From IMG/VR virus record IMGVR_UViG_3300028586_000785: DNA of 64,000 bases. One strand, written 5' to 3'. Below the pieces are notes generated by a model, which was not told the origin of the DNA, did not search any database, and was given only the letters and a program-made list of their open reading frames with translations. This DNA comes from an uncultured virus (IMG/VR IMGVR_UViG_3300028586_000785) (lineage: Duplodnaviria; Heunggongvirae; Uroviricota; Caudoviricetes). The first letter of the stretch is position 1, and each line of letters begins with the position of its first letter. The position numbers and the translations under genes are program-made. This document shows, one piece after another, positions 13,587 through 63,403 of this stretch.

Positions 13587-14842
13587 GAATCTCTCCTAAC
13601 TCTTGTGATCGAACTTGTCACACGACTGGTGACCCATTTAGGTGTATGTAGTGCAGCAATGGTATTGACCATTGCATCCGACTCCACGTCAAACTGAGTT
13701 CGTGCTGGCGCGAGATCGTAGAACCTTTTTGCCTTGGGATGAAACACCTGTAGGGAGGTAAACCCTTGTGACGCTGTGAGTGGCATGGGGAACCAGTCAT
13801 ATGCATTAGCAGTGAATACCGACTCCACACCCTTCTTTTGCAGTGCGGTGTTGGTCACTGACTTGCCGATCTTATTGAGACCTTGAATCACACGCCATTC
13901 GAATCGGTTCATTCTCGCAGCACTATTGATGTTGACGAAAACAACTTTGATATCCATATCGCTAAGTGCCGCGATAGCAGCCCAGGCAGCAGCTTTGTTT
14001 TCTAGCTTGTCTCCACCCTTGTCATCGAGGTTAGAAGCACCGCTAGTTTCCAAGATGATGATTCCACCGTCTTTCGTAACGATAGCCGCATCACCAATAT
14101 TCTCTCTGAGGTCGTGACGCTTCTTGATGTCCTCACTCAAGAACAAAGATCCAAGGGTGGCTGCTTCTCCCCAAGAGCCAATTACTGCTGGGCATGACTC
14201 CATAGCTCGAATGACCAATTCACTCGCCGCGAGGTTGTGACGAATCGATGAACCGCTCCGGGAGCTATTGGTACCCACAGCGATATCGCGCCCCTGAGCG
14301 ACTAACTTGGCTTCTAGGTCAGTGAGTCTAGCCATCCACATCTCAAGCCTCTCAGTGGCGTTAGAGAGCCTCCAGAGGTATCCACTGCCGCCATCCTTGC
14401 GACCTTGCGTGTCCCTATTCATCCAAGCAGGAACTGCATTCTCGACAACTCCATACGAATACAAATCTCTTAGTGCTCGGTTGACATCACCAGGCTTGGA
14501 ATCAAGTAGCGAAGCCAGTTGAAACGTGGTCAATTGATGAAATTGAGCTAGCGAGGCTACACATCGTATACCAACAGAGGTATACACTTTGCTCTCTGCT
14601 GTGTCGATTGGGGCGAACACAGGCTCATTACTGGCATAGATGGTACCTAAGTTGTCTACGCTGTAGGAGAGCTTGGTGGCTGAGATGGTAGACCATTTGG
14701 TAGCTAGTGCATCAAGCCATTCGACTTCGTAAAACGGGTCAAGCCTATCTACCATACCCATTGACTTTCGCCTGGTTTGGTAGATAGGACTGATGTCCGC
14801 CTTGCGCACTTCGCCCGTTAGTTCATTCAGCAATCTTACCAT
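13583..14842 (-). CDS. Replication-relaxation family protein (putative relaxase)
   Basis: wHTH-like LAQFHQLTTFQLASLL...RALRDLYSYGVV, HNLAASEL, GDAAIV...IILET; adjacent to coupling protein; start re-called to MVRLL (14842). Confidence 0.65.
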   Translation of the reverse strand: MVRLLNELTGEVRKADISPIYQTRRKSMGMVDRLDPFYEVEWLDALATKWSTISATKLSYSVDNLGTIYASNEPVFAPIDTAESKVYTSVGIRCVASLAQFHQLTTFQLASLLDSKPGDVNRALRDLYSYGVVENAVPAWMNRDTQGRKDGGSGYLWRLSNATERLEMWMARLTDLEAKLVAQGRDIAVGTNSSRSGSSIRHNLAASELVIRAMESCPAVIGSWGEAATLGSLFLSEDIKKRHDLRENIGDAAIVTKDGGIIILETSGASNLDDKGGDKLENKAAAWAAIAALSDMDIKVVFVNINSAARMNRFEWRVIQGLNKIGKSVTNTALQKKGVESVFTANAYDWFPMPLTASQGFTSLQVFHPKAKRFYDLAPARTQFDVESDAMVNTIAALHTPKWVTSRVTSSITRVRRDS

Positions 14843-41548: not shown

Positions 41549-43015
41549 TTACTTGTCGGTGAGGTCGATCTTGACCTTGCGGAGGAAATCGGGGATTGCA
41601 TCGTAGTACTGCTCGGCACCAGCGAAAGAGACAATACCGCCGACGATGAACTCCGTCTTACCCTCGGGCTTCTCGCTCGGCCAGGGGGTCTCGTTGTCCG
41701 TGAGGACGATACCGACATCGACCTTCATCTCAGCGAGCTTGGTGAAAGCAACACGCATGTCGGTTCCACCGCCACCCACGAACTCGATCTCCGAAACGCG
41801 ACGGATGCGCTTGACATCCTTGACATTAGCGTCCACCGAGAAGATGTAGACGTTATCGACTCCACCACGGCGGATGATGTCGTTGACCTCGGTAAGCACG
41901 TACTGAAGGTTATCGAAGTTCGAGCCGGAAGAGTCGAAGGCAATACCCACGTTGATGCGGTGAGCCTTACGCTTCGGGAACATGATGTCATCGACAGGCT
42001 GGACACGACCAGGCATACGCGGGTTGGTGTGCGTACGACCCATCTTGGCACGACGCTGCGTCTGAGCGTACTCGCCACGAAGAACACTCTGCCAGCGAAT
42101 CTTCGGCGGAGCGAGGACGTTCTTAGCCCACTCCTTCACGAAGTTAGGCGTGGTACCGATACCCTTGGAACGATTGGTGCCCTCGCGGTCAGCAGCGTTC
42201 TGGATAGCCTTAGCAACCTCGCTACGAGCGTACTGGTGGTCCATCTCGCTACGCTCAGGAGCCTCACGACCGCTCGCCTCCTTGGGGTCGCTGCCACCGT
42301 GCTGAGCAGAACCGCAGTTGTCCAACTGGTTCTCATAAGGAGTGTCCATGCCGCTCTCACCACGACCAGCACCGGGCTGACCCTGCTGGGGCTGACCGGA
42401 ACCATCGCCAGGCTGACCCTGCTGGGGCTGACCCTGCTGACCCTGCCCCTGACCCTGCTGAGGCTGACCAGAGCCGTCGCCCTGCTGAGGCTGACCCTTC
42501 TGCTTGTTGCCGGACTTCTTCTGCTGGTCCTTGAACTTCTCCATGAGAAGGTCGTAGTAGTCCTCGGCGCGCAGACCATCCTTGAAACCGAACGTGCTGG
42601 GGTAGTAGATCTGCTTCATGACAGCCTTGGACTCGTCAGGAAGGTTCTGGTTGATCTCCATGTCGGTAGCCCAAGCCCAGAAGTCCTCGACGGAATGCTC
42701 AGCCTGACGACGGTTGAAGTGCTCGAAGAGGATGTGGTAGCACTCGTGAATCAGTCCACCAGAAGCCCACACGATTCCAAGCTCCATGACACGCTCGAAG
42801 TGGATGTAGACACGACCGCGCTTGTCCACCGCGAAGGTGAAACCCTCGCCCATCTCGTCGCCAACGGCAATCGGGTAGAGCGAGACAAGCTGCGAACGGA
42901 TGTAAGGGGCACCAACGCCGTTCGACATTGCGCGAATGGCAATGGTGTCGAAGAAGTCGCGCTGCTCGGACGTGAGCTTGCGGTAGCTGTTGCCGCTGCT
43001 GATGATGCTTCCCAT
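41549..43015 (-). CDS. DUF2201-like metallopeptidase/VWA protein (copy 2, canonical)
   Basis: Start re-called to MGSIISSG (GAAAGAGG RBS); TFAVD, HECYH (HExxH), DMEINQ, AEDYY, Q/G-rich linker, VWA DSSGS, GGGGTD, LTD. Confidence 0.9.
   Translation of the reverse strand: MGSIISSGNSYRKLTSEQRDFFDTIAIRAMSNGVGAPYIRSQLVSLYPIAVGDEMGEGFTFAVDKRGRVYIHFERVMELGIVWASGGLIHECYHILFEHFNRRQAEHSVEDFWAWATDMEINQNLPDESKAVMKQIYYPSTFGFKDGLRAEDYYDLLMEKFKDQQKKSGNKQKGQPQQGDGSGQPQQGQGQGQQGQPQQGQPGDGSGQPQQGQPGAGRGESGMDTPYENQLDNCGSAQHGGSDPKEASGREAPERSEMDHQYARSEVAKAIQNAADREGTNRSKGIGTTPNFVKEWAKNVLAPPKIRWQSVLRGEYAQTQRRAKMGRTHTNPRMPGRVQPVDDIMFPKRKAHRINVGIAFDSSGSNFDNLQYVLTEVNDIIRRGGVDNVYIFSVDANVKDVKRIRRVSEIEFVGGGGTDMRVAFTKLAEMKVDVGIVLTDNETPWPSEKPEGKTEFIVGGIVSFAGAEQYYDAIPDFLRKVKIDLTDK
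42374..42500 (-). repeat. Coding tandem repeats (GQPQQG / GDGSGQPQQG)
   Basis: Imperfect GGCTGACCCTGCTG units repeated within the linker. Confidence 0.8.
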
Positions 43016-43037
43016 GATTTCCTCTTTCTGGTGAGTA

Positions 43038-43084
43038 ACTGACTGACAATAAGAAAGGTACCACAGATGAAGAGGTCGTGTCAA
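43038..43084 (-). promoter_or_regulatory. Sigma-A-type promoter with TGTCAGTCAGT box at the predicted start site
   Basis: TTGACA (43079-84)-N18-TACCTT (43055-60) with extended -10 TG, then TGTCAGTCAGT (43038-48). Confidence 0.7.
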
Positions 43085-43089
43085 ACGGG

Positions 43090-44175
43090 TTATCCCATTA
43101 TTTTCTGCATCCATCTTCTGTTGCGTTGTCTACGCTGCCAGCGCCTCAATTCTCTTGCGTAATCGGCATCTGCATCGCGAGGATAATCAACAGGATTAGT
43201 GATCTCGGAGATGACCTGTGCCATGAATCCACCGGAAGCGCCCTTAAGAAGGTCTCTAAGACCCCAATCCTTGCTGATCTTACCATCTTCGTCTTCTGCT
43301 TTGCGAACCGTGTTAGCTCCTTGCATGGTGGACTTGGTGATGTAGTACGCAGAAACTAGGTAACGCGATCTAGGGTACTTGGAAACAAGAGCCATTTTGA
43401 TGGCATCCTTTAGCTCTCTTTTGAGTGCCTCAATTTCAGCATTGGTTCTTGGGTGCTTCTTTTCGTCGATAACCTTACGGTGCCCCTTGGGTAGCTCGCC
43501 ATCTTCATCCAACTCTTCCTTTGAGACAATGAACTCAGCTTCCTCTTCATCCCCTCCGATGCGCGAAGCAGTAACAATCACCTCATCAGCGACAACACCA
43601 TCCTTCATAGATGTGGCAGCAAAATCACCTTCATGGGCGCTATCGAAAGCCTCTGCCGAGAGTACGTACGATTCATCTTCGTAGACGGTTTCGCCTGTAA
43701 TTTCGGTGTACTCGCGAGGGCGGAAGTCTCTAAGTACTTCGGCGGCTTGCTCTGCTGCTTCATCACCAAAGTCTTCTGGGAATGTGTAGGGGATTACAGC
43801 CCAGCTAGCACCAGATGCAGAGTACCAACCATCACCTTCTTCGACGTTCCACCTATCATCTACCTCTTCTTGCCTTGCGGGAGAAAGGAATACACCCTTA
43901 CCCTCATCGGTCGATACAACATAGATGCCCTGTCGAACTTCTTCGACGTTGGTAGGCTTACCCCAAGGTGAGTCTTTGATGGAGTCCTTACTGAACCCAG
44001 CAGAATAGAAGTTGGTACCCATTACCGTGTTTGGGGAAGTAGGGATTTTTGCCAACTGTGAACCTGATAGGTCGTCACGACGAATCCACACGCGGGTCTG
44101 GCGACCATTCCTATCGACTCTTGGGACAAGAATTAGACCTGCACGAGTAATGTGAGGTGATGATTTCGTTGGCAT
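43090..44175 (-). CDS. Hypothetical protein: N-terminal VDRNG tag plus a divergent DUF7007-like domain
   Basis: SPWG...GIYVVST..GVFLS...GWY...WAVIPYTFP...LRDFRP.EY..ITG resembles the plasmid DUF7007 pattern as recalled. Confidence 0.6.
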   Translation of the reverse strand: MPTKSSPHITRAGLILVPRVDRNGRQTRVWIRRDDLSGSQLAKIPTSPNTVMGTNFYSAGFSKDSIKDSPWGKPTNVEEVRQGIYVVSTDEGKGVFLSPARQEEVDDRWNVEEGDGWYSASGASWAVIPYTFPEDFGDEAAEQAAEVLRDFRPREYTEITGETVYEDESYVLSAEAFDSAHEGDFAATSMKDGVVADEVIVTASRIGGDEEEAEFIVSKEELDEDGELPKGHRKVIDEKKHPRTNAEIEALKRELKDAIKMALVSKYPRSRYLVSAYYITKSTMQGANTVRKAEDEDGKISKDWGLRDLLKGASGGFMAQVISEITNPVDYPRDADADYARELRRWQRRQRNRRWMQKIMG

Positions 44176-52481: not shown

Positions 52482-53516
52482 CTACACTACGTCTGCGTTC
52501 CGCCATTCAAAATCGTCAAGAAGAGATTTAGTTGTCTTGGCAACACTTTCGGCAGCAGTTGCAACCATCTTTTCTCGGTCGTTGCCAGTTCTTACCCCAG
52601 CCCAGCCCGCAACATAGCTTGCTGATGATTCGGCGTGCTCATCCATGCCGTTAGCGCGAAGAAGGACATATGCGCCGGACTCTGCTTCCACTTCCATTGA
52701 GTTGCGCTGTCCGCCGTGACCAGTGTGGTATTCATCCGCTCTTTCGAGATGTCCGGAGGCAATATGGAACAGTTCGTGCGCGAGAGTTTTGGTCTTCTCT
52801 GCATCGCTCATAGAGTTGAGGATCTTGACTGTCTTATCGGTAGGGTCGGTGGAGGTCGCACCACGTACCGTACCGCCCAGAGAGTCCACGTACTCGACTG
52901 TGAAGCCCTTAGCCTTGATAGCAGACTCAATGTCATCACTAAGCCCTGCGGGAGGCGTAGAAGCCATTTCGCGGTGCGAGGTAGGCAGTTCCTCACCTTC
53001 TGTTTGGGCAATATCAAACACTCCAACACCAAAGAAGATGGATATTTCGGTCTTGACGGGCTTGCCATCTGGACCGATAACCTCATCACCATTCTTATCG
53101 GTCTTGGTAATCTTCTTCTTTCCGAAGGCATTGATGGCGATTGCCTTTTCACCCCTACGAGGGTGACGACCGAGAGATTCCCACGTCTTGTATCCTGCTA
53201 CCCGGGTTGCCTTACCTTGCGTCTGCATATCGATAAGGATCTGGTTGTTCCACGAGTAGTTTCGGAACTTGCTCATGGACTTGAGGTAGTGATTCCAGTT
53301 CTCATCCTCTGCCAAAGCTGAAACTCGCGCCTGTAGCTCATCCCTATAACCATCAAGACGCTCCTTAAGGGTTGGTCCCTTCTTCTCGGACTCCTTGGCT
53401 GCACTTTTTGGCTTCACACCTGCTACTCGACTTGTCGATGCCTTGGATACCCTTTTCTTGCGAGTGGTCTGAACACCGTTCTTATCAACGATAGGTGTGT
53501 CTACTAGCTCGTTCAT
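52482..53516 (-). CDS. ardC: ArdC-like ssDNA-binding/metallopeptidase antirestriction protein
   Basis: FRNYSWNNQILI..Q...ATRVAGYKTWESLGRHPRRGEKAI...VFDIAQTEG; KTLAHELFH; EVEAES. Confidence 0.85.
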   Translation of the reverse strand: MNELVDTPIVDKNGVQTTRKKRVSKASTSRVAGVKPKSAAKESEKKGPTLKERLDGYRDELQARVSALAEDENWNHYLKSMSKFRNYSWNNQILIDMQTQGKATRVAGYKTWESLGRHPRRGEKAIAINAFGKKKITKTDKNGDEVIGPDGKPVKTEISIFFGVGVFDIAQTEGEELPTSHREMASTPPAGLSDDIESAIKAKGFTVEYVDSLGGTVRGATSTDPTDKTVKILNSMSDAEKTKTLAHELFHIASGHLERADEYHTGHGGQRNSMEVEAESGAYVLLRANGMDEHAESSASYVAGWAGVRTGNDREKMVATAAESVAKTTKSLLDDFEWRNADVV

Positions 53517-54032: not shown

Positions 54033-54410
54033 TTATGACGCATCAGGTAGAACATCTTGAGATTGAGTGACATGAGTTTCTCCGGAAACAAGAGTACGTT
54101 CAATTTCGCCGTTCTTCTTGTATCGAATTCTCACAGGTAGAGTATTCCTATCTAGCCAAGTGCGCTTATCTGACTGGATCTTCATGACTGAACGTGCACC
54201 ATAATTAGCAACTTCCGCAATGGTGGCATCGAGTTCGTCGAACTGTTCTTCGGGAGTCTTCTGGGTGTCTACGAGTCCACTTAGATAAGCAACATCTACA
54301 TACTCATTCCATGTCTCCTGAAGCTCTTTTCGCAAGCTCATGATCTCAGCGGCTATGTCGGTCAGAGATTTACTTGGATCGATGTCCTCAGGCGAGCATG
54401 AAAACATCAC
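54033..54410 (-). CDS. Hypothetical protein
   Basis: 125 aa; 4-nt overlap with the upstream gene. Confidence 0.7.
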   Translation of the reverse strand: MMFSCSPEDIDPSKSLTDIAAEIMSLRKELQETWNEYVDVAYLSGLVDTQKTPEEQFDELDATIAEVANYGARSVMKIQSDKRTWLDRNTLPVRIRYKKNGEIERTLVSGETHVTQSQDVLPDAS

Positions 54411-54811
54411 ACAAACCCATCACCAACGGTGTTTTTGGGCTGCGGCGCGACGTAGTTGTAAGGAGTAGCCTTACCCATCTCACCAAGGTCGGTGTGGTCA
54501 GAACCCTGCTGAATCTCCTTAGCGGGGAAGCGGTACTTCGAGAAAACAACGGTGTCGCTGTCTTCGAGGTGCGCCTCGGTAGGCTTCTTCATGACATCGA
54601 CCACGACCAGCTTGAGATCCTCTTCACCCGGAATGCTGAACGTACCGACCTCATAGCACGAAGGAGCTTCGTCGCGAATCATCTGCCAGAACCGATCCAG
54701 ACGGCGACGGGTGGTAACAATGCGAAGAGTTGCCACCTTGACCATGTTCGGCGCAGCGGGCGCATCCTTGACAACATCAGTACTGGGCATTGCATCAAGC
54801 TTAACGGGCAT
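54407..54811 (-). CDS. Hypothetical protein
   Basis: 134 aa; GAAAGG RBS; TTGACT-N17-TAAGTT promoter candidate at about 54847-54875. Confidence 0.75.
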   Translation of the reverse strand: MPVKLDAMPSTDVVKDAPAAPNMVKVATLRIVTTRRRLDRFWQMIRDEAPSCYEVGTFSIPGEEDLKLVVVDVMKKPTEAHLEDSDTVVFSKYRFPAKEIQQGSDHTDLGEMGKATPYNYVAPQPKNTVGDGFV

Positions 54812-54885
54812 AAGTAGACCTTTCTACGGTTCTTTCTACTAGCTACAACTTAGTGCATGTTGACACCAAAGTCAAATTGGTCTTA

Positions 54886-54978
54886 CTGATTGAGACACTA
54901 ACCCCGGCGAACCAGGGACTTCGTATCACGTCGGCATCACGGCGGAACATCCCAATAATAGGAGAGTGTCTCAATCAG
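54886..54978 (-). CRISPR. Candidate degenerate single-spacer mini-array (crRNA-like element) inside a 14-bp inverted repeat
   Basis: Minus strand after the cas6e stop: GACACTCTCCTATTATTGGGATGTTCCG (28 nt, I-E-like GGG-ATGTTCCG end), CCGTGATGCCGACGTGATAC (20 nt), GAAGTCCCTGGTTCGCCGGGGTTAGTGTC (29 nt, stem with UUCG loop). The two 'repeats' are not similar in sequence. Confidence 0.4.
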
Positions 54979-55609
54979 AAGTCTTGTTGTCGATGGTTAG
55001 TAGACCGCAGCCATATCCCTTAGCTCGACCAATTCCACCCACCATAGCTGCTCTTAGCGCATCCGCATCATCAATGCGACCTGAGCCATGTACACGAGCG
55101 ATAGCTAGCGTTACCTTAGAACTGCCTCTTTTGAAGGTGTCAATGTCGTACGAGTCAATTGACAGCGCATTGGTTTTGAGACCCGCGCCGGTAAGCTTTG
55201 CACCAATCCACTCTTCGAGATCTTCCTCTTTGATGGGGACTCTTTTGTTTGACTGAGTAACTGTGTTTACGGGATTGACAGCCAGTGAAAAGTGGTAAGT
55301 ACCATCGTCAGAAAGGCTATCTAGCAGAGGCTGACACGACACCTGCTGGAATCCACCATCGGGAGCAGAAGACCACCCCGATGCTTCTACAATATGTTCT
55401 ACCGAAGGAGCCTCAGGACTAACGATGAGCAGTGCAGTTTCCTTCCCCGATCCGTCCAATCGCCATAGAACGCGGTTCTCACCAATCACCGTCTTTTGGG
55501 TAGGAGCGAAAGCCTGCAACACTGTGGCGTGAGCAACCTGTCTGGAAACAAGCAGCTTCCTTGAAGCAGCCCTATACGTGTTGATAGGGATAGAGGTCAT
55601 GTAAGTCAT
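54971..55609 (-). CDS. cas6e: Type I-E Cas6 (Cse3/CasE)
   Basis: QVAHATVLQAF, RVLWRLD, LLIVSP..P, FSLAVNPV, GIGRAKGYGCGLLTI G-loop. Confidence 0.95.
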   Translation of the reverse strand: MTYMTSIPINTYRAASRKLLVSRQVAHATVLQAFAPTQKTVIGENRVLWRLDGSGKETALLIVSPEAPSVEHIVEASGWSSAPDGGFQQVSCQPLLDSLSDDGTYHFSLAVNPVNTVTQSNKRVPIKEEDLEEWIGAKLTGAGLKTNALSIDSYDIDTFKRGSSKVTLAIARVHGSGRIDDADALRAAMVGGIGRAKGYGCGLLTIDNKTSD

Positions 55610-56328
55610 TTCTCTCCCTCGGCTACACTCATCGCAAATGTCATAGCTGGATTGCTATGGACACGCGGGACGGGATTTGTCTCTTGTTCAACATTGATGC
55701 GTTCGTGGAATACACCGCGAGGGGAATACCTTCTTGCTGCGCTGTCGAAGGTAACTGGGTTGTCCATCACGACATCAGAAAGATACCCTTCATCTTCGTC
55801 AATGGGGTCTCGGAATAGAGAAATTGTGGACTCATCCGTCTTGGGCATGGGAAAGCCAGATAGTGCACCTCTTACATCATCTGCCACTACAGAGTGGAAG
55901 ATAGGCTTGTTAGGTGGGCACGATTTCCTTCCCAAGAACAATGCTCGCTTGGGCTTCCTGAGAGCCTGAGCAACCGAATTGACGAGCGCGCCACTATCTG
56001 AATACAGCGCCACCACAAATTCTGCATCAGCTAGGTAGTACCTCTCGGTGATTCGATTTACCCTGTCGCCCTTAGTCGGCTGAGTAATGATACTGACGGT
56101 ATGGTAATCACGCTGAATTTTTCCTACTGAATCAACACGTACTCCATACGACATGCCTGCGAGGTCAGAAATGTCATCACTTCTGTCTCGACCCATAGCA
56201 TTGGCGACCAAACCGAGTATTGCACTCTTGGTTGGGTAACTCATGGTAGATCTGGCATGACCAATAGTCGTAGTACCCCATGACTGCAATACACCAGACA
56301 GAACCATGATGACGCTAGGCATCAGCAA
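55606..56328 (-). CDS. cas5e: Type I-E Cas5 (CasD)
   Basis: LSGVLQSWG...RST..PTKSAILGLVANAMGRDR, RDYHTV, RYYLADAEF, LFLGRKSCPP. Confidence 0.95.
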   Translation of the reverse strand: MLMPSVIMVLSGVLQSWGTTTIGHARSTMSYPTKSAILGLVANAMGRDRSDDISDLAGMSYGVRVDSVGKIQRDYHTVSIITQPTKGDRVNRITERYYLADAEFVVALYSDSGALVNSVAQALRKPKRALFLGRKSCPPNKPIFHSVVADDVRGALSGFPMPKTDESTISLFRDPIDEDEGYLSDVVMDNPVTFDSAARRYSPRGVFHERINVEQETNPVPRVHSNPAMTFAMSVAEGEK

Positions 56329-57400
56329 CCACTACATTCTTGACGGCGGCAACAAGATCCTTGAGGGGTAGACGCTCAGCAAACGGAATGTCCATTCCCG
56401 CACCAGTGCCAATGTAGAAAGCATGCTCCGGCAAGCCGTAATTGTCATAGAGAGACGACGCTTCATCAATAAGCCGCATTACGGCTTCACTAGCGATGTC
56501 TTCTCCCGACAGCACACTACTGAAAGCAGAGGCAAGAGAAAGAGGCTGATCGTCGGAGATTGTCACGAGGACAAAATGAGGAAGGGTTTGCGCTGCAAAG
56601 CTAGACTGCTTACCAGAGGGCATGGACCGAACAAATGCGTTGACAAAAGCACCAACGGCATCAGCAGTGAACTGAGCGTCACCATCTAGATTTTTGCTCA
56701 GTGTTGCTGTATCAAGACACGCATAGCGGTATACGGTAGAGGACACAAAGTCAATCGATCCGATGATCTTGGTCTTGGACAGTGCATCATCGATACCAAC
56801 AAACGAATCGCGCTGGTTGGTAAGCTTGTCTACACCAATGATGTGAGCAACACTTGCTGCTGCCTCAACGCTAAGCTCGGCGTTTGCTGTCATCATTCTG
56901 CCAAAGAGTGCGAGGTCTACTGTGTTCTTACCGACAAGTGAAGATTTGATTTCAGAAACCGAGATGGACTTCCTTTTACCATCAACCACTTCAACCGCAA
57001 CATCAACCAGACTATCTAGCTGGCTCGGGCTGTAGAAGACGATCATCTTGGAACTAGTGACAGAGCCAGGCTCCACCTCTTCGTTATCGGCTTCTGTCTT
57101 TTCAACAACACCAAGAACGATCTTGACCAAGCTGTCTACTAGCTTGCCATCCGCTTTGGGTCGTACTTCAAGCAGCCTTTTCCTGAACTCTGACGGTAGC
57201 TGAGTCGTTCGGCAACCCATGTAGCTGGCATCATAGTTCTCGGCAAAGAACTGACGAATGGCATACTTCCATGATTGTGAAGAAATACGAGCGCGCTCTA
57301 CGCCACCAAATAGAGCCTTTTTGGGCATACCGCTATCATCGCGGTTGAGTGCCGAAGGCGGCAGTGTCTGAAGAGCATGGATGTTGATGAATTGGGTCAA
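56315..57400 (-). CDS. cas7e: Type I-E Cas7 (Cse4/CasC)
   Basis: FINIHALQTLPPSALNRDDSGMPK..FGG..RARISSQSWK.AIR, DLALFGRM, VEAA..VAH, YRYA, MPSGKQSSFA. Confidence 0.95.
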   Translation of the reverse strand: MTQFINIHALQTLPPSALNRDDSGMPKKALFGGVERARISSQSWKYAIRQFFAENYDASYMGCRTTQLPSEFRKRLLEVRPKADGKLVDSLVKIVLGVVEKTEADNEEVEPGSVTSSKMIVFYSPSQLDSLVDVAVEVVDGKRKSISVSEIKSSLVGKNTVDLALFGRMMTANAELSVEAAASVAHIIGVDKLTNQRDSFVGIDDALSKTKIIGSIDFVSSTVYRYACLDTATLSKNLDGDAQFTADAVGAFVNAFVRSMPSGKQSSFAAQTLPHFVLVTISDDQPLSLASAFSSVLSGEDIASEAVMRLIDEASSLYDNYGLPEHAFYIGTGAGMDIPFAERLPLKDLVAAVKNVVVADA

Positions 57401-57420
57401 TGTTGTAATCTCCTGACCGA

Positions 57421-57449
57421 AGGTTAGACCACAGAAGCTATCGTGTCAA
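57421..57449 (-). promoter_or_regulatory. Internal sigma-A-type promoter upstream of cas7
   Basis: TTGACA (57444-49)-N17-TAACCT (57421-26), then AGGAG RBS. Confidence 0.6.
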
Positions 57450-57456
57450 ATCAGCG

Positions 57457-59487
57457 CTATCTAGACACGATGAGTTCGGCTATGTCCCTTTGATGCATAC
57501 CACTAATGACGGCATCGGTGAGGGTGGCTAGGCTCCCAAAGTCAACGGAGCCACCTCGGGCTATTACCACCCCAGCTAGACTTCGCGCATTCTCAATAGC
57601 CTGCATCTTGTCTCTCGATGCAATCATCTGTGAGACCCGCATGTCAAAAGCATCACCTGATTCATTCTTCAATACATCAAGGAATGCGAACAAACGAGGC
57701 TCTACTGCGTGCGTAGAACTACCATCCGAGCGCCTTTTCCATGAAGACCATATCTTCATGACCTCACTAGCGATGTCACCGGCATTAGAGCGAACAGAAA
57801 TGTCGCTAGCGATAGCCCATCGAACATAACTTCCAAGCTCACGGTCTGGTCCAGTCATGGATTCCAAACCAAGAGTTCTTCTCAATCTGGCTCTAGAAGA
57901 AGCTACCGAAAACAGTTTCTTCTCTCCATTTTGAGTCCGCCAGACACCAAGTAGCTCTTTCGCTGTAGCTGTGTCGGACACCTCGTCTGCGTGGGTGCCT
58001 AGTGCACTTGCAAGCATCTGGATTGCGGCACTTGTCGATGAAGTGTTGGAAGAGATGTTCCTGAACATCCATAGGAAACTTCTATCTAGATCCATTTCGG
58101 CAGAGCGCATCATCGACTTCATCGCCGTGACATCGACCTCGCCGTACTTTGCCGTGAGGTAATCCTTGACGAAGCCATAGTAAGTTGACTTCACCATACT
58201 CACCATTTTGGCTGAATCATCTTCTAGCTGTGCAACTACAGAGGCGCTAGATAATCTTGCGATTGACTCTACAGAGACACTCTTGTCAATGACACCACGG
58301 AAGACCTGAACACGATCATCAGTGCTCGCACCGATGATTCGAACTCTCACCGGTAGCGATATACCTAGCAAGTTGGACACCTTTGCCGCCCAAGTGACAT
58401 TGAGGGGTGCCTGAAAACCAGGCTTACTACGGGGAAGCAATGCTGGAACGTTCTGCCATACAGAGTCCTCCGTGAGGTAGTACGCCGCCATTTCTCCGGT
58501 CTTGCTTTCGCGCCAAGCTGTCTGTGTTTCATGATGCCGCGCCATGTGCACCTGAGAGCTTTTGCTACTCAATGAGTTATTCTCAGAAGAGACAGCAGAG
58601 GTAACCATGCCATCTTCAGCAATGAGCCTTACACTCTTTGCGAACCACACAAAAAGTTGTACCTGACCGGCAGGTTTGGCGCTTCTTTGCTTGAAAACTG
58701 GACGTTTTGACTCTTCGTCGAATTCATACATAGTGGGTACCTTCTTCCCACTCTTCTCTTCCCAGAAAGGCATGTCACTCTTCTTTAGCTGTGAAGGAAC
58801 CAGATTCAGCAGAAGAGTCTCATAGAGATTGCGTCCAGATAGCTGAGTAACCCCAATTGACGAGCACCACCCTCTATGCCCCTTAGGATAGAAGCGCGCA
58901 ATGGCGGTTTCATCGCTCGGGTTCATACCAACAACAGGACTCAAAGGAGCCATCGTGGACCAGGAGTGGTAGGCAATAAGGATGCGCGCTGACTCGGCGT
59001 AGCTCACTCGCGCCGCAAAATCACTGTTCTTGAAAACGCTAATCAGATCTGCATCTGGCATCATCTTACCCAAGCTGTACTTAACAGAAGAGTAGGTTCC
59101 GCTTTCCTTGCTGCTGTACTCCAAGTTCGGTATCTGGAAGAACGGTCTCTTGCTATCAAACAGATCAAAACGATGCTGCCACTCATCTAGGTATGTAGAG
59201 GCGATAGACGACAAAGCACCACTGTCGTCATCCCACAGCATCTTCCACAGAGCAACATCAGCGTTTTTGACGTGGTTCTTCTGCTCTATGAAAAGAGGCG
59301 TTACCGCACGGTACATGACCGCCAAGACAAGTCTCACGACAGATGCCGTCTGCAATGGGTTATCGCATTCGATAGACTTGATCTGAGCCGACTTGATGAA
59401 TACGTCACGAAGCGATACGACATCCGAATGTCCGCTATTCAGGCTCACCGGAATCCAAGGCTCGGATACAAGATTGAAGCTAGGCAA
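57457..59487 (-). CDS. cas8e: Type I-E Cas8e (Cse1/CasA) with C-terminal Cas11 (Cse2)-like extension
   Basis: FNLVSEPWIPV, VSLRDVF, RLVLAVMYRA, YLDEWQHRFDLFDSKRPFFQ, GRNLYETLLLNL; last ~133 aa resemble Cse2. Confidence 0.9.
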   Translation of the reverse strand: MPSFNLVSEPWIPVSLNSGHSDVVSLRDVFIKSAQIKSIECDNPLQTASVVRLVLAVMYRAVTPLFIEQKNHVKNADVALWKMLWDDDSGALSSIASTYLDEWQHRFDLFDSKRPFFQIPNLEYSSKESGTYSSVKYSLGKMMPDADLISVFKNSDFAARVSYAESARILIAYHSWSTMAPLSPVVGMNPSDETAIARFYPKGHRGWCSSIGVTQLSGRNLYETLLLNLVPSQLKKSDMPFWEEKSGKKVPTMYEFDEESKRPVFKQRSAKPAGQVQLFVWFAKSVRLIAEDGMVTSAVSSENNSLSSKSSQVHMARHHETQTAWRESKTGEMAAYYLTEDSVWQNVPALLPRSKPGFQAPLNVTWAAKVSNLLGISLPVRVRIIGASTDDRVQVFRGVIDKSVSVESIARLSSASVVAQLEDDSAKMVSMVKSTYYGFVKDYLTAKYGEVDVTAMKSMMRSAEMDLDRSFLWMFRNISSNTSSTSAAIQMLASALGTHADEVSDTATAKELLGVWRTQNGEKKLFSVASSRARLRRTLGLESMTGPDRELGSYVRWAIASDISVRSNAGDIASEVMKIWSSWKRRSDGSSTHAVEPRLFAFLDVLKNESGDAFDMRVSQMIASRDKMQAIENARSLAGVVIARGGSVDFGSLATLTDAVISGMHQRDIAELIVSR

Positions 59488-62431
59488 CAGCCACCTTCTT
59501 TTCTACCTTCATCTCCAGACCTCTATCGTGCCTATAGGAGATGGAGAAGCTGCGACCATTCAGCGTCATGTTTTCTCTCAATACCAAGACGTGCTTGTGG
59601 CGCAGAATAGGCTCTGAATGCCATTCAGGCATCAGGTCTGTTTCGAACAGGATCTCTTCGTCAACAAGAGCGTCATACTCTTTGCCGCGCAGTCTTAGCA
59701 TGCTGGCGGCAATAGCAAGTGCCGTTTCCCGTGTCGGCTTCGAATTGAAATCAACTGGAAGTCCCGCGCCGTCAAAATCTCCATCAAGAGTCTGAATCTG
59801 ACCTTGACCATTCGACTTTAGGATGATGACTTCTTCTTCATCTTCGATGTCACGAACCTGAGCCAGAGCTTTGGATTCTGTCTTTCCTACTTCGCGATTG
59901 ATATGACTCTGCCAATCGAGAATATCCGTCTCGGGAGCGGGGAGAAGGTAGTTACTGTCAGCCTTGTCTCGCTTTTCGGCAATAAGAGCCTTCCACTCCT
60001 TCTCTGCCTCTCTCCACTGCTCTTTCCATTCTTCGGGCGCACGGACACGATCACCATACCCACGCCGCACCAGCGCAGAGATGTCCTTAGGAAGGTGAAG
60101 TCTACTGTCGTCATCCAGAGCGTACGGACGTAGAGCGTGAACTGCTCGGTAAAGCGTCTTGAGTGGGTAAATGCTTTCGGCGGAATGGTTGATGCCGGGA
60201 ACACCAGAGTCTTCCGCACCGTCCCAATTGGAGACCCCTGCGATATACATGCGAGGCTCTGTAAACACTCTGGGTCGGGTGGGAATCACATGACGGTGAG
60301 TTCTTCCAGCCCTCTGAAGCAGTGAATCGATAGGGGCGATGTCGGATACGCTTTCATCGAAGTCGATATCCAGAGATTGCTCCATTACCTGCGTTCCTAC
60401 GACAATGAGTCTTCTGGGTCGCTTAGAAAACTCCTTACCTAGATAGTTGTTGAGCTTCTGCTCCTTGATAGCTCTATCCAATCCAATGAATCGTGAGTGT
60501 AGGAGTAGCACCTCGACGTTCATGTCAGAGTCCTCAAAGAACTCTTTCATCGCGTCATAGGTCTGCTGTGAGCGAGCAACGGTATTCCGGAAGATGCCAA
60601 TGCAGCCACCGTGAATCAACCTGTCTGACAAGCGCTTAGCAAGCCTTTCGTTGTCAGCACCACCAGCAAGGATGTTGAGCGCCAGAGGGTTCTTATTGGA
60701 AGCCCCCTCAGTATGGTGAACATGAACGCCGGTCTTGTCTAGAACGGAGATGAGTGGATACTTGATAGTGGTGAGGGGCTTGAGGTTGATACCACCCACA
60801 TCGTTCTTAGACTTACGACTCGACACAATCTTTTCAGGGTTGAGCGTAAGCGGAAGGGCAGTTCTGGGCGCACTCATAGCCTGCCTTGAATTCAGACCGT
60901 CATTGTACGCAGAAACTAGATCCTTTCGAATGTCTGTGGGAAGGGTCGCAGAGAGTAGCACCACGGGAACACCGTAGTATCCCAACCACTGCAATGCCCT
61001 ACCGAGGAAGACATTCATGTATGCGTCATAAGCATGCACCTCGTCAAGGATAACAACCTTGTTCGCGAGTGCCAGGTGTCGTAGAGCGACATGCCTGGCG
61101 GCAAGAGCAGAGACAAGAACCTGATCGATTGTTCCAACCACGAAGTTGGACAAGGGTCCAAGTCGAGTACCCTGCGCAAGCCACTTGTTGATGTGACCGC
61201 CATCAATGCTTTCTTCACGTGCGGCATCAAAGAGTTCGGAGAACGTTCCATTGAGACCAGAGCGCGAGTGAGAAAGATACATGGACATGCCGGTACGACT
61301 ACCCGGGAGGTTGCTCACCCAGCTTCTAGCGCGAGCGAAGATAGCATCTGATGTTGCGATGGTAGGTAGTGCCACAAATACACCACTTGCGCCAGTCTTC
61401 TGTGCCATGACCTCAGCAACAGCTAGCGCAGCCTCAGTCTTTCCTTCTCCCATTGGTGCCTCAATGATAATGAGTCCACTATCGTTGAGCGGCTTGACAG
61501 CTTCTAGCGCAGCGCTCTGTACAGGTCGAGGCGGGAAACCAAATCTCGTGTGGAAGAACTCAGCACCTGCATTAGGTGGAACAGAAGGATTCCACTTAGA
61601 GGGAATCGGTAGAGCCGAGAGTGCCTTGACCGCCCTGTCAGTCTCTTTCTGGACATTTACGTCAAGTGACTTACTCTTCAACGACATATTGCAGCCAAAG
61701 CCCTGAGAAGCGCCCCAGTCGGCAGCGACCACGAATCCCATCAAGATGGTTTCGGCTGAGCGAGATACATCCGAAGTGGACCACGATGCAAACTTCTTGT
61801 TAGCCCCAGAAATGGCAGCGGCATAGTCAAAAATCTCACGCTGCACCTGGACCCACAACGGGTCAGACAATCCCATGATGTCTTCTCGACCAACACATGC
61901 AGCGAGCAGTTCATGAGACAGAGGGTGACCGTGGTGGCTTCCGACAATGATTGCGCAAGAGTCGGCTACAGACTCCGAGACTCCGTATTCGAGTAGAAAC
62001 TTCTTGACCAAGATTGCAGAGATAACCTCGTGCCGAATAAGGCTTCTGTCAAGACCACGCGGCACATGAAGACCGTTCTTTCCCATGAACGCATCATTGA
62101 GTTCATTGACGTAATCATCTTCTGATGCAAGGAATACGGGGGAGGATTTACCTAGGTCGTGAATACCGGCAAGGAAGATGGCAAGGGTGCGCGCATCATC
62201 ATCGCCTCCCACGGCAATCGAGACATCCCTCTTTGCTGCCTCTGGTAGGTACTCATCATATAGTCTAGATGCGACTAGAGCCGTATCAGCAAGGTGTCGG
62301 TACAGGGGCATCCAGAAGGTAGTGTCCTTACCCTTCTGGGTCTTACCCCAGACCGAACGCGCCGCAATAGATAGGCTCTCAGCCTTGCGTGCTACACGGA
62401 GCGCGTGCTTCTCATGGTTAGTTGGCATCAT
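59480..62431 (-). CDS. cas3: Cas3 HD nuclease-helicase
   Basis: WGK..PLYRHLADT, HDLGK, RHE, HHG, ADW (HD domain); APMGEGKT, DEVH, SAT, QRAGR.HRH (SF2 helicase). Confidence 0.97.
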   Translation of the reverse strand: MMPTNHEKHALRVARKAESLSIAARSVWGKTQKGKDTTFWMPLYRHLADTALVASRLYDEYLPEAAKRDVSIAVGGDDDARTLAIFLAGIHDLGKSSPVFLASEDDYVNELNDAFMGKNGLHVPRGLDRSLIRHEVISAILVKKFLLEYGVSESVADSCAIIVGSHHGHPLSHELLAACVGREDIMGLSDPLWVQVQREIFDYAAAISGANKKFASWSTSDVSRSAETILMGFVVAADWGASQGFGCNMSLKSKSLDVNVQKETDRAVKALSALPIPSKWNPSVPPNAGAEFFHTRFGFPPRPVQSAALEAVKPLNDSGLIIIEAPMGEGKTEAALAVAEVMAQKTGASGVFVALPTIATSDAIFARARSWVSNLPGSRTGMSMYLSHSRSGLNGTFSELFDAAREESIDGGHINKWLAQGTRLGPLSNFVVGTIDQVLVSALAARHVALRHLALANKVVILDEVHAYDAYMNVFLGRALQWLGYYGVPVVLLSATLPTDIRKDLVSAYNDGLNSRQAMSAPRTALPLTLNPEKIVSSRKSKNDVGGINLKPLTTIKYPLISVLDKTGVHVHHTEGASNKNPLALNILAGGADNERLAKRLSDRLIHGGCIGIFRNTVARSQQTYDAMKEFFEDSDMNVEVLLLHSRFIGLDRAIKEQKLNNYLGKEFSKRPRRLIVVGTQVMEQSLDIDFDESVSDIAPIDSLLQRAGRTHRHVIPTRPRVFTEPRMYIAGVSNWDGAEDSGVPGINHSAESIYPLKTLYRAVHALRPYALDDDSRLHLPKDISALVRRGYGDRVRAPEEWKEQWREAEKEWKALIAEKRDKADSNYLLPAPETDILDWQSHINREVGKTESKALAQVRDIEDEEEVIILKSNGQGQIQTLDGDFDGAGLPVDFNSKPTRETALAIAASMLRLRGKEYDALVDEEILFETDLMPEWHSEPILRHKHVLVLRENMTLNGRSFSISYRHDRGLEMKVEKKVAVA

Positions 62432-62440
62432 CAGACTACG

Positions 62441-62469
62441 ATGATAGCCACCCTTCTACTAAAAGGCAA
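62441..62469 (-). promoter_or_regulatory. cas3 promoter candidate (near-leaderless transcript)
   Basis: TTGCCT-N17-TATCAT, 9 nt before the first ATG; no RBS visible. Confidence 0.55.
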
Positions 62470-62476
62470 GTTGAGG

Positions 62477-63292
62477 TTATGGGGCGGTGTATGCGAATAC
62501 CTGAGTGCTGATGGTCTCGTTCTTTGAAAGGTCTCCCTTTTCAAGAGAACGACACTTCGCTCCAACCTTGTAGTTCGTCTTTACGCCCTTGACCTTGTAG
62601 TTGTCGTCGAGGAAGTCAAGAGACTGATTGTTGGAGCTAGACCATGCACCAGATTTTGTGCTGCCGTTGCCGTAAGTAACGCGAATCTGATAAGCGGGTG
62701 CGGTGGTAGGACCACATGTGACACCCGTCCATGTGAGGTTTTCAACTCCATTGGTCATCGTGATTGATGCCGGGATGCCGATGGGTGCAGCAAGCCTGTC
62801 AGGCACCGTTGGCTCAACATTGGCAGGCGGCACATATCCTGGTCTACAAGTAAGTGGGAGGGTTAGCTTGGCTTTTTCGACCGCAGTAGGGTTCTCAGAA
62901 GAGACGTAATATATCTTGCCGGTCTTTACCTTGCCGGACACGATGTATTCATTGTTGTAACACCACTGCACAGTTGGGTTTTCTTTGAATGAAGATGTAG
63001 AGAACGTGTATGGATACTTCCACTTCGACAGGTTGTCTAACCCGCCGTTACTTGGCACGAAGTTCTGATTCACCGTACCCTTGGCAGCAATCCAAGCCTC
63101 CTGCGCAAAAGCCATATTGACTAGCTGTGTACGGACAACATTGTCTCGCTGGTTGTTGATAATGCCAGGCGCTGTGAGAGTTCCAGCAGCAATCAAGATT
63201 GCAGAAACAGCAACAGTGATTGTTTGCATGATCGAGTTCTCCGCGCGATCAGATCGCACAGAGGGCATTAGTTTTGTAAACCAGTTAGTCAT
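62477..63292 (-). CDS. Type IV pilin-like membrane-anchored protein with Cys-paired C-terminal beta domain
   Basis: Start re-called to MTNWF; hydrophobic helix TITVAVSAILIAAGTLTAPG followed by NNQRDNVVRTQLVNMAFAQEAW pilin-like helix. Confidence 0.55.
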   Translation of the reverse strand: MTNWFTKLMPSVRSDRAENSIMQTITVAVSAILIAAGTLTAPGIINNQRDNVVRTQLVNMAFAQEAWIAAKGTVNQNFVPSNGGLDNLSKWKYPYTFSTSSFKENPTVQWCYNNEYIVSGKVKTGKIYYVSSENPTAVEKAKLTLPLTCRPGYVPPANVEPTVPDRLAAPIGIPASITMTNGVENLTWTGVTCGPTTAPAYQIRVTYGNGSTKSGAWSSSNNQSLDFLDDNYKVKGVKTNYKVGAKCRSLEKGDLSKNETISTQVFAYTAP

Positions 63293-63403
63293 CAACTCAT
63301 CCTCGGAACCGTCGTTTTTGGGTCTGTTTTGACGACGGTCACAGTTTCGTATCACTCTACACTACCTGCTAGTATCACCCCTGTTTTATTGGTAACATCA
63401 GGC

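Follow-up and report, generated by a model that had tools for sequence, protein, structure and literature searches.

A probably active, adaptation-less type I-E-derived Cascade-Cas3 locus with a candidate short guide unit on a large mobile element

How can a type I-E CRISPR effector be guided when both the adaptation genes and the repeat array are missing from its surroundings? The question is raised by a five-gene cas operon in a 64-kb stretch of DNA (the window), which is part of a 229,183-bp contig of an uncultured virus (IMG/VR record IMGVR_UViG_3300028586_000785). A preliminary description had proposed an interference-competent Cascade-Cas3 that uses a remote array, CRISPR RNAs (crRNAs) of the host, or a tiny adjacent RNA. 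As judged from its sequence, the locus is minimal, adaptation-less, and probably active, and we favor, at about even odds (a probability near 0.5), a self-contained derivative of type I-E in which hard-wired short guides replace an acquired array.

The operon is a minus-strand run of five co-directional open reading frames (ORFs; 54971-62431) that overlap slightly or are separated by small gaps. The previously reported order cas3-cas8e-cas7-cas5-cas6e is borne out; all five products are matched by Pfam, NCBIfam, and PADLOC. The cas3 gene (59480-62431, 983 aa) encodes an HD nuclease, a superfamily 2 helicase, and the Cas3 C-terminal domain; it matches Pfam Cas3_HD (4.6e-39), Cas3-like_C_2 (4.3e-35), and Cas3_C (3.8e-14), as well as PADLOC Cas3e (2.9e-184), with Cas3_HD at residues 28-243, the helicase core at 321-714, and Cas3_C at 860-972. 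The next gene (57457-59487, 676 aa) is a cas8e-cas11 fusion, whose product is recognized by PF09481 (CRISPR_Cse1; 2.5e-60 over residues 5-466), TIGR02547 (1.2e-31), and PADLOC Cas8e (7.4e-58). It is followed by cas7e (56315-57400, 361 aa; PF09344, Cas_CT1975, 8.3e-86; TIGR01869, 6.4e-74 and 249.8 bits at a cut-off of 178), cas5e (55606-56328, 240 aa, without an extra nuclease domain; PF09704, 5.2e-34; TIGR01868, 2.5e-41 and 141.9 bits at a cut-off of 69), and cas6e (54971-55609, 212 aa; PF08798, 1.3e-42; PADLOC Cas6e, 3.4e-42; TIGR01907, 50.9 bits at a cut-off of 45.2). Of the hallmarks of type I-E, Cse1/Cas8e, the I-E-family Cas7e, Cas5e, and Cas6e proteins, and an HD-helicase Cas3 are present.

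Alignment of Cas3 with the solved Cas3 4q2c places the stretches IHDLGK, GSHHGHP, GEGKTEA, LDEVHAYD, LSATLP, and QRAGRTHRH, which we take to represent the HD motifs together with motifs I, II, III, and VI of the helicase, so that the earlier impression of intact-looking Cas3 motifs is upheld. In Cas6e, His27 and a glycine-rich C-terminal loop are invariant among three relatives, and the motifs of both proteins look intact at the sequence level. The window and two related loci, L002 (a metagenome contig) and L007 (an IMG/VR contig), each have the five frames open and at full length; the contig of a further relative, L001, stops at cas5. These data agree with the proposed adaptation-less, type I-E-derived Cascade-Cas3 on a large mobile element.

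The missing components were searched for at several levels. The operon is flanked by unrelated genes, as had been stated, with a pilin-like ORF upstream and a 134-aa ORF without a family downstream. Comparison of the flanking ORFs with Pfam, NCBIfam, and PADLOC yielded no Cas1, Cas2, or stand-alone Cse2, and the other ORFs of the window, scanned against PHROGs (25 of them also against Pfam), yielded no Cas protein; the absence of cas1 and cas2 from the locus accordingly stands. A stand-alone cse2/cas11 gene was not found either, as no ORF lies between the end of cas8e at 57457 and the start of cas7 at 57400. With respect to arrays, none of the 20 rows of Tandem Repeats Finder output for the window was CRISPR-like, a direct-repeat search gave two families that both fall within a coding repeat at 42356-42493, Rfam produced no matches, and a periodic-motif scan detected nothing in these 64 kb, an array with a 48-nt period included. 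The coding repeat itself is a GC-rich tandem repeat of 9- to 15-nt units in a DUF2201/VWA-like ORF (41549-43114), with a local GC peak of 0.57. The earlier statement that the window has no repeat array therefore holds for arrays proper, and it has to be amended by one repeat-pseudo-spacer-repeat unit at 54882-54981.

This unit is a structured crRNA-like element of 100 nt on the minus strand, directly 3' of cas6e. A long outer stem, which overlaps the cas6e stop codon, encloses from 5' to 3' a first hairpin, a handle, 20 nt, and a second hairpin. The repeat-like hairpin 1 (54950-54963) has 5-6 bp and a tetraloop and is kept in all three relatives with different stem and loop letters. The putative 8-nt 5' handle (54943-54950), whose length is borrowed from type I-E practice, begins with the last base of hairpin 1; seven of its eight bases are invariant in the three relatives, and its letters also close the first repeat of a mini-array described below. 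The presumed 20-nt pseudo-spacer (54923-54942) has 16 of 20 positions invariant. The second repeat-like part (54902-54922, 21 nt; a single copy within the window) consists of 5 nt and a GC-rich 6-bp hairpin (54902-54917), the stem of which is preserved in the three relatives through a G-U to G-C change, with differing loops. Counted from the handle through the second hairpin, the unit spans 49, 49, and 48 nt.

This arrangement recurs after cas6e in all three related loci that extend far enough (the window, L002, and L007), with a degenerate repeat, a short pseudo-spacer, and a second degenerate repeat in order within the cas locus. A 28-nt core, comprising the end of hairpin 1, the handle, and the first 17 spacer bases, is identical at 26 of 28 positions in each of the three pairs, whereas the DNA of cas6e and cas5 is 49-58% identical (49-56% for cas6e alone). 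The fold z-scores are -4.26 (window), -4.75 (L007), and -4.28 (L002), and in each case none of 200 shuffled sequences folds as well. In the consensus fold, 4 of 26 pairs show compensatory changes; with three sequences, the covariation of the hairpins is suggestive. In the MAFFT alignment, hairpin 1 of L002 is mis-registered. No terminator-like site was seen between cas6e and the unit, and the promoter-like element of the next gene, the 134-aa ORF, lies past it. At a permissive threshold, Rfam reports no CRISPR-DR family on the unit and only two chance microRNA-like matches. The suggestion that the tiny adjacent RNA serves as a guide has been strengthened by the conserved core, the apparently covarying hairpins, and the stable fold, which make it the best candidate.

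The claim that cas11 is absent holds for a separate gene and fails for the protein domain. Cas8e is 676 aa long vs. 448-559 aa in most other Cse1 matches, i.e., longer by ~130-230 residues, and seven further proteins with 44-56% identity share this 664-693-aa format, giving eight family members in total. The extension corresponds to a Cas11 (Cse2/CasB)-like domain at residues 547-676 (57460-57849, minus strand). The NCBIfam Cse2 model TIGR02548 gives a weak match, below its cut-off, at residues 514-654 (E 0.0085), and a six-frame search for Pfam Cse2 (PF09485) in the related genome G001 gives another weak match at the same C-terminal place of Cas8 (15.7 bits). An AlphaFold model of Cas8e, computed from eight sequences, becomes confident at about residue 410, with predicted local distance difference test (pLDDT) values mostly of 85-94 in the Cas11 part. 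The model was compared with 48,161 solved chains by VIA-align, i.e., independently of Foldseek. In this comparison, residues 547-676 align with CasB 4h79_A (Z 9.9, 128 aligned residues), Cse2 2zca_A (Z 7.5), and CasB 3wa8_B (Z 6.8), and among the 50 matches listed only Cas11 proteins align solely within these residues, bearing in mind that helical folds yield many middling structural scores. Residues 1-541 align with the Cse1 chains 3wvo, 4qyz_A, 5u07_C, 4ej3, and 4h3t at Z 7.7-8.8, and the top match overall is 8zlu_C (Z 10.7). At the junction, the four loci have no conserved in-frame start preceded by a ribosome-binding site, and in L007 the codons for residues 470-580 include no ATG or GTG. 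Since the fold and the weak profile matches point to Cse2 and no conserved internal start exists, the gene reads as encoding a single Cas8e-Cas11 chain, predicted to contribute one Cas11 per Cas8e.

At the genome scale, the window was compared with G001, the record behind L007 (202,737 bp, CheckV completeness 96%), which IMG/VR files as a provirus. It is collinear with the window, as all 39 window ORFs of at least 150 aa have ordered tblastn matches in it (38-90% identity). The preliminary description would have given way to a merely split canonical system had cas1, cas2, cas11, and a normal array turned up elsewhere on the replicon; in G001, there is no match to Cas1, no match to Cas2 by PF09827, a single sub-cut-off match to PF09707 (15.8 bits, inside a 440-aa frame), and no 61-nt-period array in a k-mer CRISPR scan. 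Amino acid identity between the window and G001 is 82.6% for Cas3, 69% for Cas7, 56% for Cas5, 55% for Cas8, and 51% for Cas6, so that Cas3 is the best-conserved protein of the operon; its 82.6%, compared with 51-69% for the Cascade subunits, suggests that Cas3 is in use.

A hairpin scan of G001 revealed a degenerate mini-array on the plus strand at 76250-76521 (L012:16250-16521), ~45 kb from the operon and inside a tRNA cluster, between tRNA-Val and tRNA-Asp. It comprises five to six type I-E-like repeats of 28 nt with an exact 48-nt period over five intervals, which leaves 20-nt spacers; Tandem Repeats Finder also reports a period of 48. Each repeat folds into a hairpin at the same place, one perfect and three with an internal loop. 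The five spacers are mutually similar, which points to growth by duplication rather than by Cas1-Cas2 acquisition. By synteny, the tRNA cluster of the window replicon would lie outside the window. A scan of viral contigs for the 48-nt-period motif gave 40 loci, 36 of which read as coding tandem repeats or chance; the others are G001 itself and three CRISPR-like loci. Two of these (L025:1370-1670 and L031:1370-1700) carry type I-E-like degenerate repeats with spacers of ~20-22 nt, and one of the two is a complete 41-kb genome with terminal repeats, whereas the third (L026) has spacers of ~32 nt except for a last one of 21 nt. None of the three contigs contains a Cas7e gene.

Taken together, these features lead us to the following scheme, every step of which, beyond the existence of the genes and of the unit, is inferred. 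The unit would be co-transcribed with the operon, and Cas6e would cleave both hairpins to release an RNA of ~49 nt with an 8-nt handle, a 20-nt guide, and a 21-nt hairpin, compared with ~61 nt and an 8-nt handle for a canonical type I-E crRNA (the Liu et al. preprint and 10.1101/2024.07.22.604555, available text). This RNA would seed a shortened Cascade of one Cas8e-Cas11, about four Cas7, Cas5, and Cas6e. In the available text of a study of E. coli Cascade, shortening the spacer by 12 nt (to 20) gives the composition (Cse2)1(Cas7)4Cas5Cas6e, and interference persists with spacers of ~20 nt or more (PMC5159557). A natural short Cascade is proposed because both the 20-nt guide units and the sole Cas11, fused to Cas8e, match this composition. 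The complex would bind a conserved 20-bp DNA target beyond the visible sequence, in a host chromosome or a rival element, and hand it to Cas3 for degradation, which we favor over mere binding because Cas3 looks intact and has diverged less than any other protein of the operon. More guides of the same format are probably present on another part of the replicon, in a small array grown by duplication like that of G001.

A number of observations weigh against this scheme. Mismatch-tolerant scans of the window, L001, L002, and G001 with the pseudo-spacer gave only chance-level matches, and the mini-array spacers have no target in G001 above chance. The exact 22-nt pattern was found at one locus in viral contigs, inside a RecA-like gene of an unrelated phage fragment, and at two loci in genome contigs, where the same peptide is coded in unrelated metagenome-assembled genomes; all three matches were judged to be chance because they lie within unrelated coding sequence. 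When a 39-nt core was compared by BLAST with the genomes of E. coli and with GenBank phages, the E values were no better than 0.6, and two canonical type I-E loci contain no site with fewer than three mismatches to the guide. The unit itself is represented by three sequences only; its core includes a tandem half-repeat of 11 nt, of the kind expected in a protein operator, and opens a frame of 22-36 codons. Contigs of two phyllosphere RNA libraries contain diverged fragments of cas5 and of the 134-aa ORF, possibly carried over from DNA, and leave the unit uncovered, a gap that does not speak for its silence. As for the short complex, the N-terminal two-thirds of the Cas8e model are of low confidence (mean pLDDT 56.5), and 20 nt is the lower edge for interference in E. 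coli according to the available text of PMC5159557. A single Cas11 does not force a short complex, because the Cas5-HNH type I-E variant pairs one Cas11 with six Cas7 (10.1101/2024.07.22.604555, available text). The short pseudo-spacers of CreR, CreA, and Cracr repress transcription without cutting, as far as the accessible parts of the preprints by Shmakov et al. and Liu et al. describe them. Finally, degenerate arrays are easily overlooked, given that the k-mer scan of G001 had missed the mini-array that the hairpin scan later found.

Two other target candidates were rejected. In the first, the guide seed would mirror the codons of a Cas3 HD motif; the 8-nt match there in the window and L002 has poor protospacer-adjacent motifs (PAMs) and is accounted for by coding. 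The second is a 10-nt match at 63355 to the 3' part of the guide, which occurs in the window alone and is missing from the relatives' own pairs.

How the unit might act otherwise can be weighed against the same evidence. The least improbable alternative, to which we assign a small yet real chance, is a regulatory RNA of the CreR/CreA kind that would be loaded into the element's own Cascade, pair partially with a promoter of the element, and repress it without cutting, with interference guides coming from elsewhere. A site that would suit it lies at 72747-72769 of G001 (L012:12747-12769), where an ATG precedes 10 nt that match the beginning of that genome's own pseudo-spacer, 23 nt upstream of a tRNA-Met gene and overlapping a promoter-like hexamer pair. 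The chance expectation for such a site is ~0.4 without the ATG and ~0.02-0.03 with one of the four E. coli PAMs; the site was found after the fact and in one genome. The unit also shares the build of crRNA-like regulators, i.e., degenerate repeats, a short pseudo-spacer, a location in the cas locus, and conservation that peaks in the PAM-proximal part, as these are described in the available text of the Shmakov and Liu preprints. Yet no match of at least nine PAM-proximal bases was found near the cas3 promoter or in the upstream divergent region of the window, L001, L002, and L007, and Cas3, superfluous to a pure repressor, is kept and is the best-conserved protein of the operon. We consider it unlikely that most crRNAs loaded into the proteins stem from arrays on the host genome or on another replicon, the unit being the decayed terminal repeat pair of a lost array. 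Borrowing of this kind has been proposed for incomplete CRISPR loci of phages and plasmids, which would take the missing parts from the host (PMC7162821, available passages), and it accords with the lack of a normal array in the window and G001 and with a Cas6e that looks catalytically competent. A decayed remnant, on the other hand, would not hold a 26/28 core and covarying hairpins while its neighbors fall to 49-58% DNA identity; besides, the hairpins of the unit are unlike the canonical repeats compared, its period is 48-49 nt rather than 61, and a single fused Cas11 suits short guides.

Readings in which the core is no guide at all are, in our estimate, improbable. It could be a DNA operator for the regulator of the downstream promoter, since its two 11-nt half-repeats are one helical turn apart and lie ~50-75 nt upstream of the -35-like hexamer of the 134-aa ORF; an operator, however, would require no covarying hairpins on its two sides, nor would its end have to agree with that of the first repeat in the 48-nt array of G001. 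Moreover, the 7-nt half-site, tried as the mark of a promoter class, is not enriched (9 occurrences vs. 7.8 expected in the window and 22 vs. 24.7 expected in G001). It could be a small peptide gene, as an ATG-initiated frame of 36, 31, and 22 codons begins at the core in the three relatives, but these frames are unequal in length, none has a ribosome-binding site, and both substitutions in the first nine codons fall on second codon positions. Finally, it could stabilize the operon mRNA, whose 3' end the outer stem would shield. That the whole locus is what is left of a captured type I-E system, no longer functional and about to be lost, is, in our view, very improbable: cas1, cas2, and the array are missing and the Cascade subunits diverge fast between relatives (51-69% amino acid identity), but five full-length frames are open in all three loci that reach that far, the 664-693-aa fusion is kept in eight family members, the catalytic stretches are preserved, and near-identical copies occur in runs of 17 studies.

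An extension of the favored short-guide scheme, which we regard as doubtful, is a natural mini type I-E effector with one Cas8e-Cas11 chain, about four Cas7, a 49-nt crRNA, and 20-nt guides that are passed on and duplicated rather than acquired through Cas1-Cas2, some of them aimed at tRNA genes of a host or rival element, so that the locus would act as an RNA-guided takeover device. That some guides may be directed at tRNA genes is suggested by the tRNA-antisense-like mini-array spacers and by the place of the mini-array within a cluster of 64 tRNA genes. Three of the five spacers (L012:16282-16493) resemble the antisense of G001 tRNA genes at 15 of 20 bases, which 4-7 of 300 shuffles reach, and two of the three matches begin directly past the T-loop, in register with the repeat handle. 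The guide next to cas6e shows no such antisense likeness to the tRNA genes of G001. The cluster extends over 64.9-81.8 kb of G001 (L012:4899-L013:1841) and includes, in addition to the 64 tRNA genes, a transfer-messenger RNA (tmRNA) with the tag ANASRNDFALAA; the window has none. Under a takeover, diverged tRNAs, a tmRNA, a CCA-adding enzyme, and the ligase RtcB would all come from the element itself.

The carrier can safely be called a mobile element of roughly 230 kb. The window and G001 both encode a replisome, a ribonucleotide reductase, a ligase, and similar genes, and G001 has in addition a CCA-adding enzyme, RtcB, and NAD-salvage genes. No match to Terminase_6N or the HK97 capsid was obtained in G001, where divergent structural genes could escape detection, and no structural PHROG was assigned among the 53 G001 and 40 window ORFs scanned. 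Other features, like the pilin-like ORF next to cas3, may instead point to a conjugative or mobilizable megaplasmid: G001 carries PilB-, PilT-, and PilC-like genes (L010:4574-9879), and the window encodes a Replic_Relax protein (13583-14899; 27 bits at a cut-off of 25.3), an AAA_10 ATPase (27754-30510; 58.5 bits), and an ArdC-like protein with an ArdC-N domain (52482-53516); family scans of the window and G001 identified no canonical relaxase or VirD4.

By eye, a putative promoter-like element precedes cas3 on the minus strand, with a -35 hexamer at 62464-62469 and a -10 hexamer at 62441-62446; hexamers with this 17-nt spacing are found at the same position in the window, L001, L002, and L007. 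The cas3 start coincides with a conserved CTGATGATG, 9 nt after the -10-like hexamer and without a ribosome-binding site (window 62432-62446), and the cas3 message may be leaderless or near-leaderless. Upstream, outside the system, lies the pilin-like ORF (62477-63355, minus strand, 292 aa, probable start 63292), syntenic in L001, L002, and L007. It has no match in Pfam, NCBIfam, or PADLOC, and its nearest Atlas clusters contain a prepilin N_methyl domain (score 0.86), which serves as a lead only. The divergent region upstream of this ORF contains a motif of ~30 nt (window 63335-63380, minus strand) common to the four loci (~6100-6150 in L001, L002, and L007), possibly an element-specific promoter or operator. 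Downstream, the conserved 134-aa ORF (54407-54811, minus strand), which has its own promoter-like element, is syntenic in L002 and L007 and has no family in Pfam, NCBIfam, PHROGs, or PADLOC and no usable Atlas match.

Seventeen studies have runs that contain near-identical DNA, counted as at least part of the stretch 54400-56400, and most of these are metagenomes of leaf litter, straw, plants, or the phyllosphere; copies of at least 99% identity are found on long contigs of a straw metagenome and of a run labeled with a single coded organism. GenBank phages contain no relative at the DNA level. In viral contigs, a single-protein query found nothing, and an alignment query retrieved L007.

If the short-complex reading is true, nature has made a compact Cascade of fixed stoichiometry that engineers obtained by spacer trimming. 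Such a complex would need fewer genes, as cas11 is not separate, and a shorter guide, and would keep its processive Cas3 intact; it would matter for the question of what determines the length of Cascade and for the design of compact type I tools. A mobile element would then have turned adaptive immunity into a fixed-guide device, which stands between canonical immunity, regulators of the crRNA-like kind, and the systems poor in arrays that plasmids and transposons carry, and one would ask which sequence merits hard-wiring across relatives whose Cas proteins are ~45-55% identical. Were the guide a mere autoregulator, the case would add modestly to what has been written on CreR and Cracr. As a hypothesis, the short Cascade is concrete and could be tested at low cost.

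Several components of this picture are already known, namely adaptation-less loci on huge phages and plasmid-like elements, crRNA-like mini-arrays, and small subunits at the ends of large-subunit genes of other subtypes. In a partial search of the literature without supplements, the combination of a Cas3-bearing type I-E system, a fused Cas11, no adaptation genes, a single conserved 3' guide unit, and a 48-49-nt format in keeping with one Cas11 and four Cas7 was not found. Canonical type I-E loci, represented by a Streptomyces plasmid (NZ_CP108804.1, L063) and Nocardia farcinica (NZ_LN868939.1, L062), contain the same families in the same cas3-cas8e-cas7-cas5-cas6e order, an HD-helicase Cas3, and a GC-rich repeat hairpin followed by a similarly lettered handle, and Cas7e is 35-41% identical to Cas7e of Actinomycetota plasmid records. 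In contrast to them, the present locus is without cas1e/cas2e and a long array, its casB/cas11 is a domain of cas8e, and the repeat-to-repeat period is 48-49 nt here and in G001 vs. 61 nt in the canonical comparators.

The crRNA-like regulators CreR, CreA, and Cracr (10.1101/2023.03.03.530964, 10.1101/2023.03.10.532045, 10.1101/2024.10.29.618823), as presented in the available text of these preprints, have the same succession of degenerate repeat, short pseudo-spacer, and degenerate repeat; in those of type I-E, the pseudo-spacer measures 21 or 24 nt and the handle 8 nt, and multiplexed arrays with mutually similar spacers are also described. L025 and L031 resemble the Cracr arrays of Liu et al. 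in that text. According to the same sources, Cracr hijacks host Cas proteins, whereas the present element encodes its own Cascade and Cas3, and CreR lies upstream of the promoter that it represses, whereas the present unit is at the 3' end of the operon, with no convincing cis promoter target.

The adaptation-less loci that huge phages and large plasmid-like elements carry (Al-Shayeb et al., 2020; PMC7162821) are similar, in the passages available, in residing on large elements rich in replication and translation genes, in lacking Cas1, Cas2, and Cas4, and in having compact arrays and conserved effector residues. Those passages report a type I-C variant in which a different helicase replaces Cas3 as well as class 2 systems, and in the main-text passages a type I-E system with a fused Cas11, a single guide unit, or 20-nt spacers is not mentioned. 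The placement of small-subunit sequence at the 3' end of the large-subunit gene recalls types I-B, I-C, and I-D (PMC5965380, available text), where Cas11 is made separately by internal translation, as the accessible part of 10.1101/2020.04.18.045682 has it; unlike them, the present cas8e has no conserved internal start. In the model, Cas8e appears to retain its usual helical bundle, with the Cas11 domain added after it.

A reduced Cas11 complement is shared with the Cas5-HNH type I-E variant (10.1101/2024.07.22.604555; PDB 8zlu), which by the available description has no Cas3, cleaves by means of an HNH domain on Cas5, and combines six Cas7 with normal guides, whereas here Cas3 is kept and Cas5 is plain. 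The composition expected here, with one Cse2 and four Cas7, is that of the short-spacer E. coli Cascade in the available text of Kuznedelov et al. (2016; PMC5159557). That complex is a laboratory construct of a canonical system and is less stable, whereas the present locus would provide a natural, co-adapted version of it.

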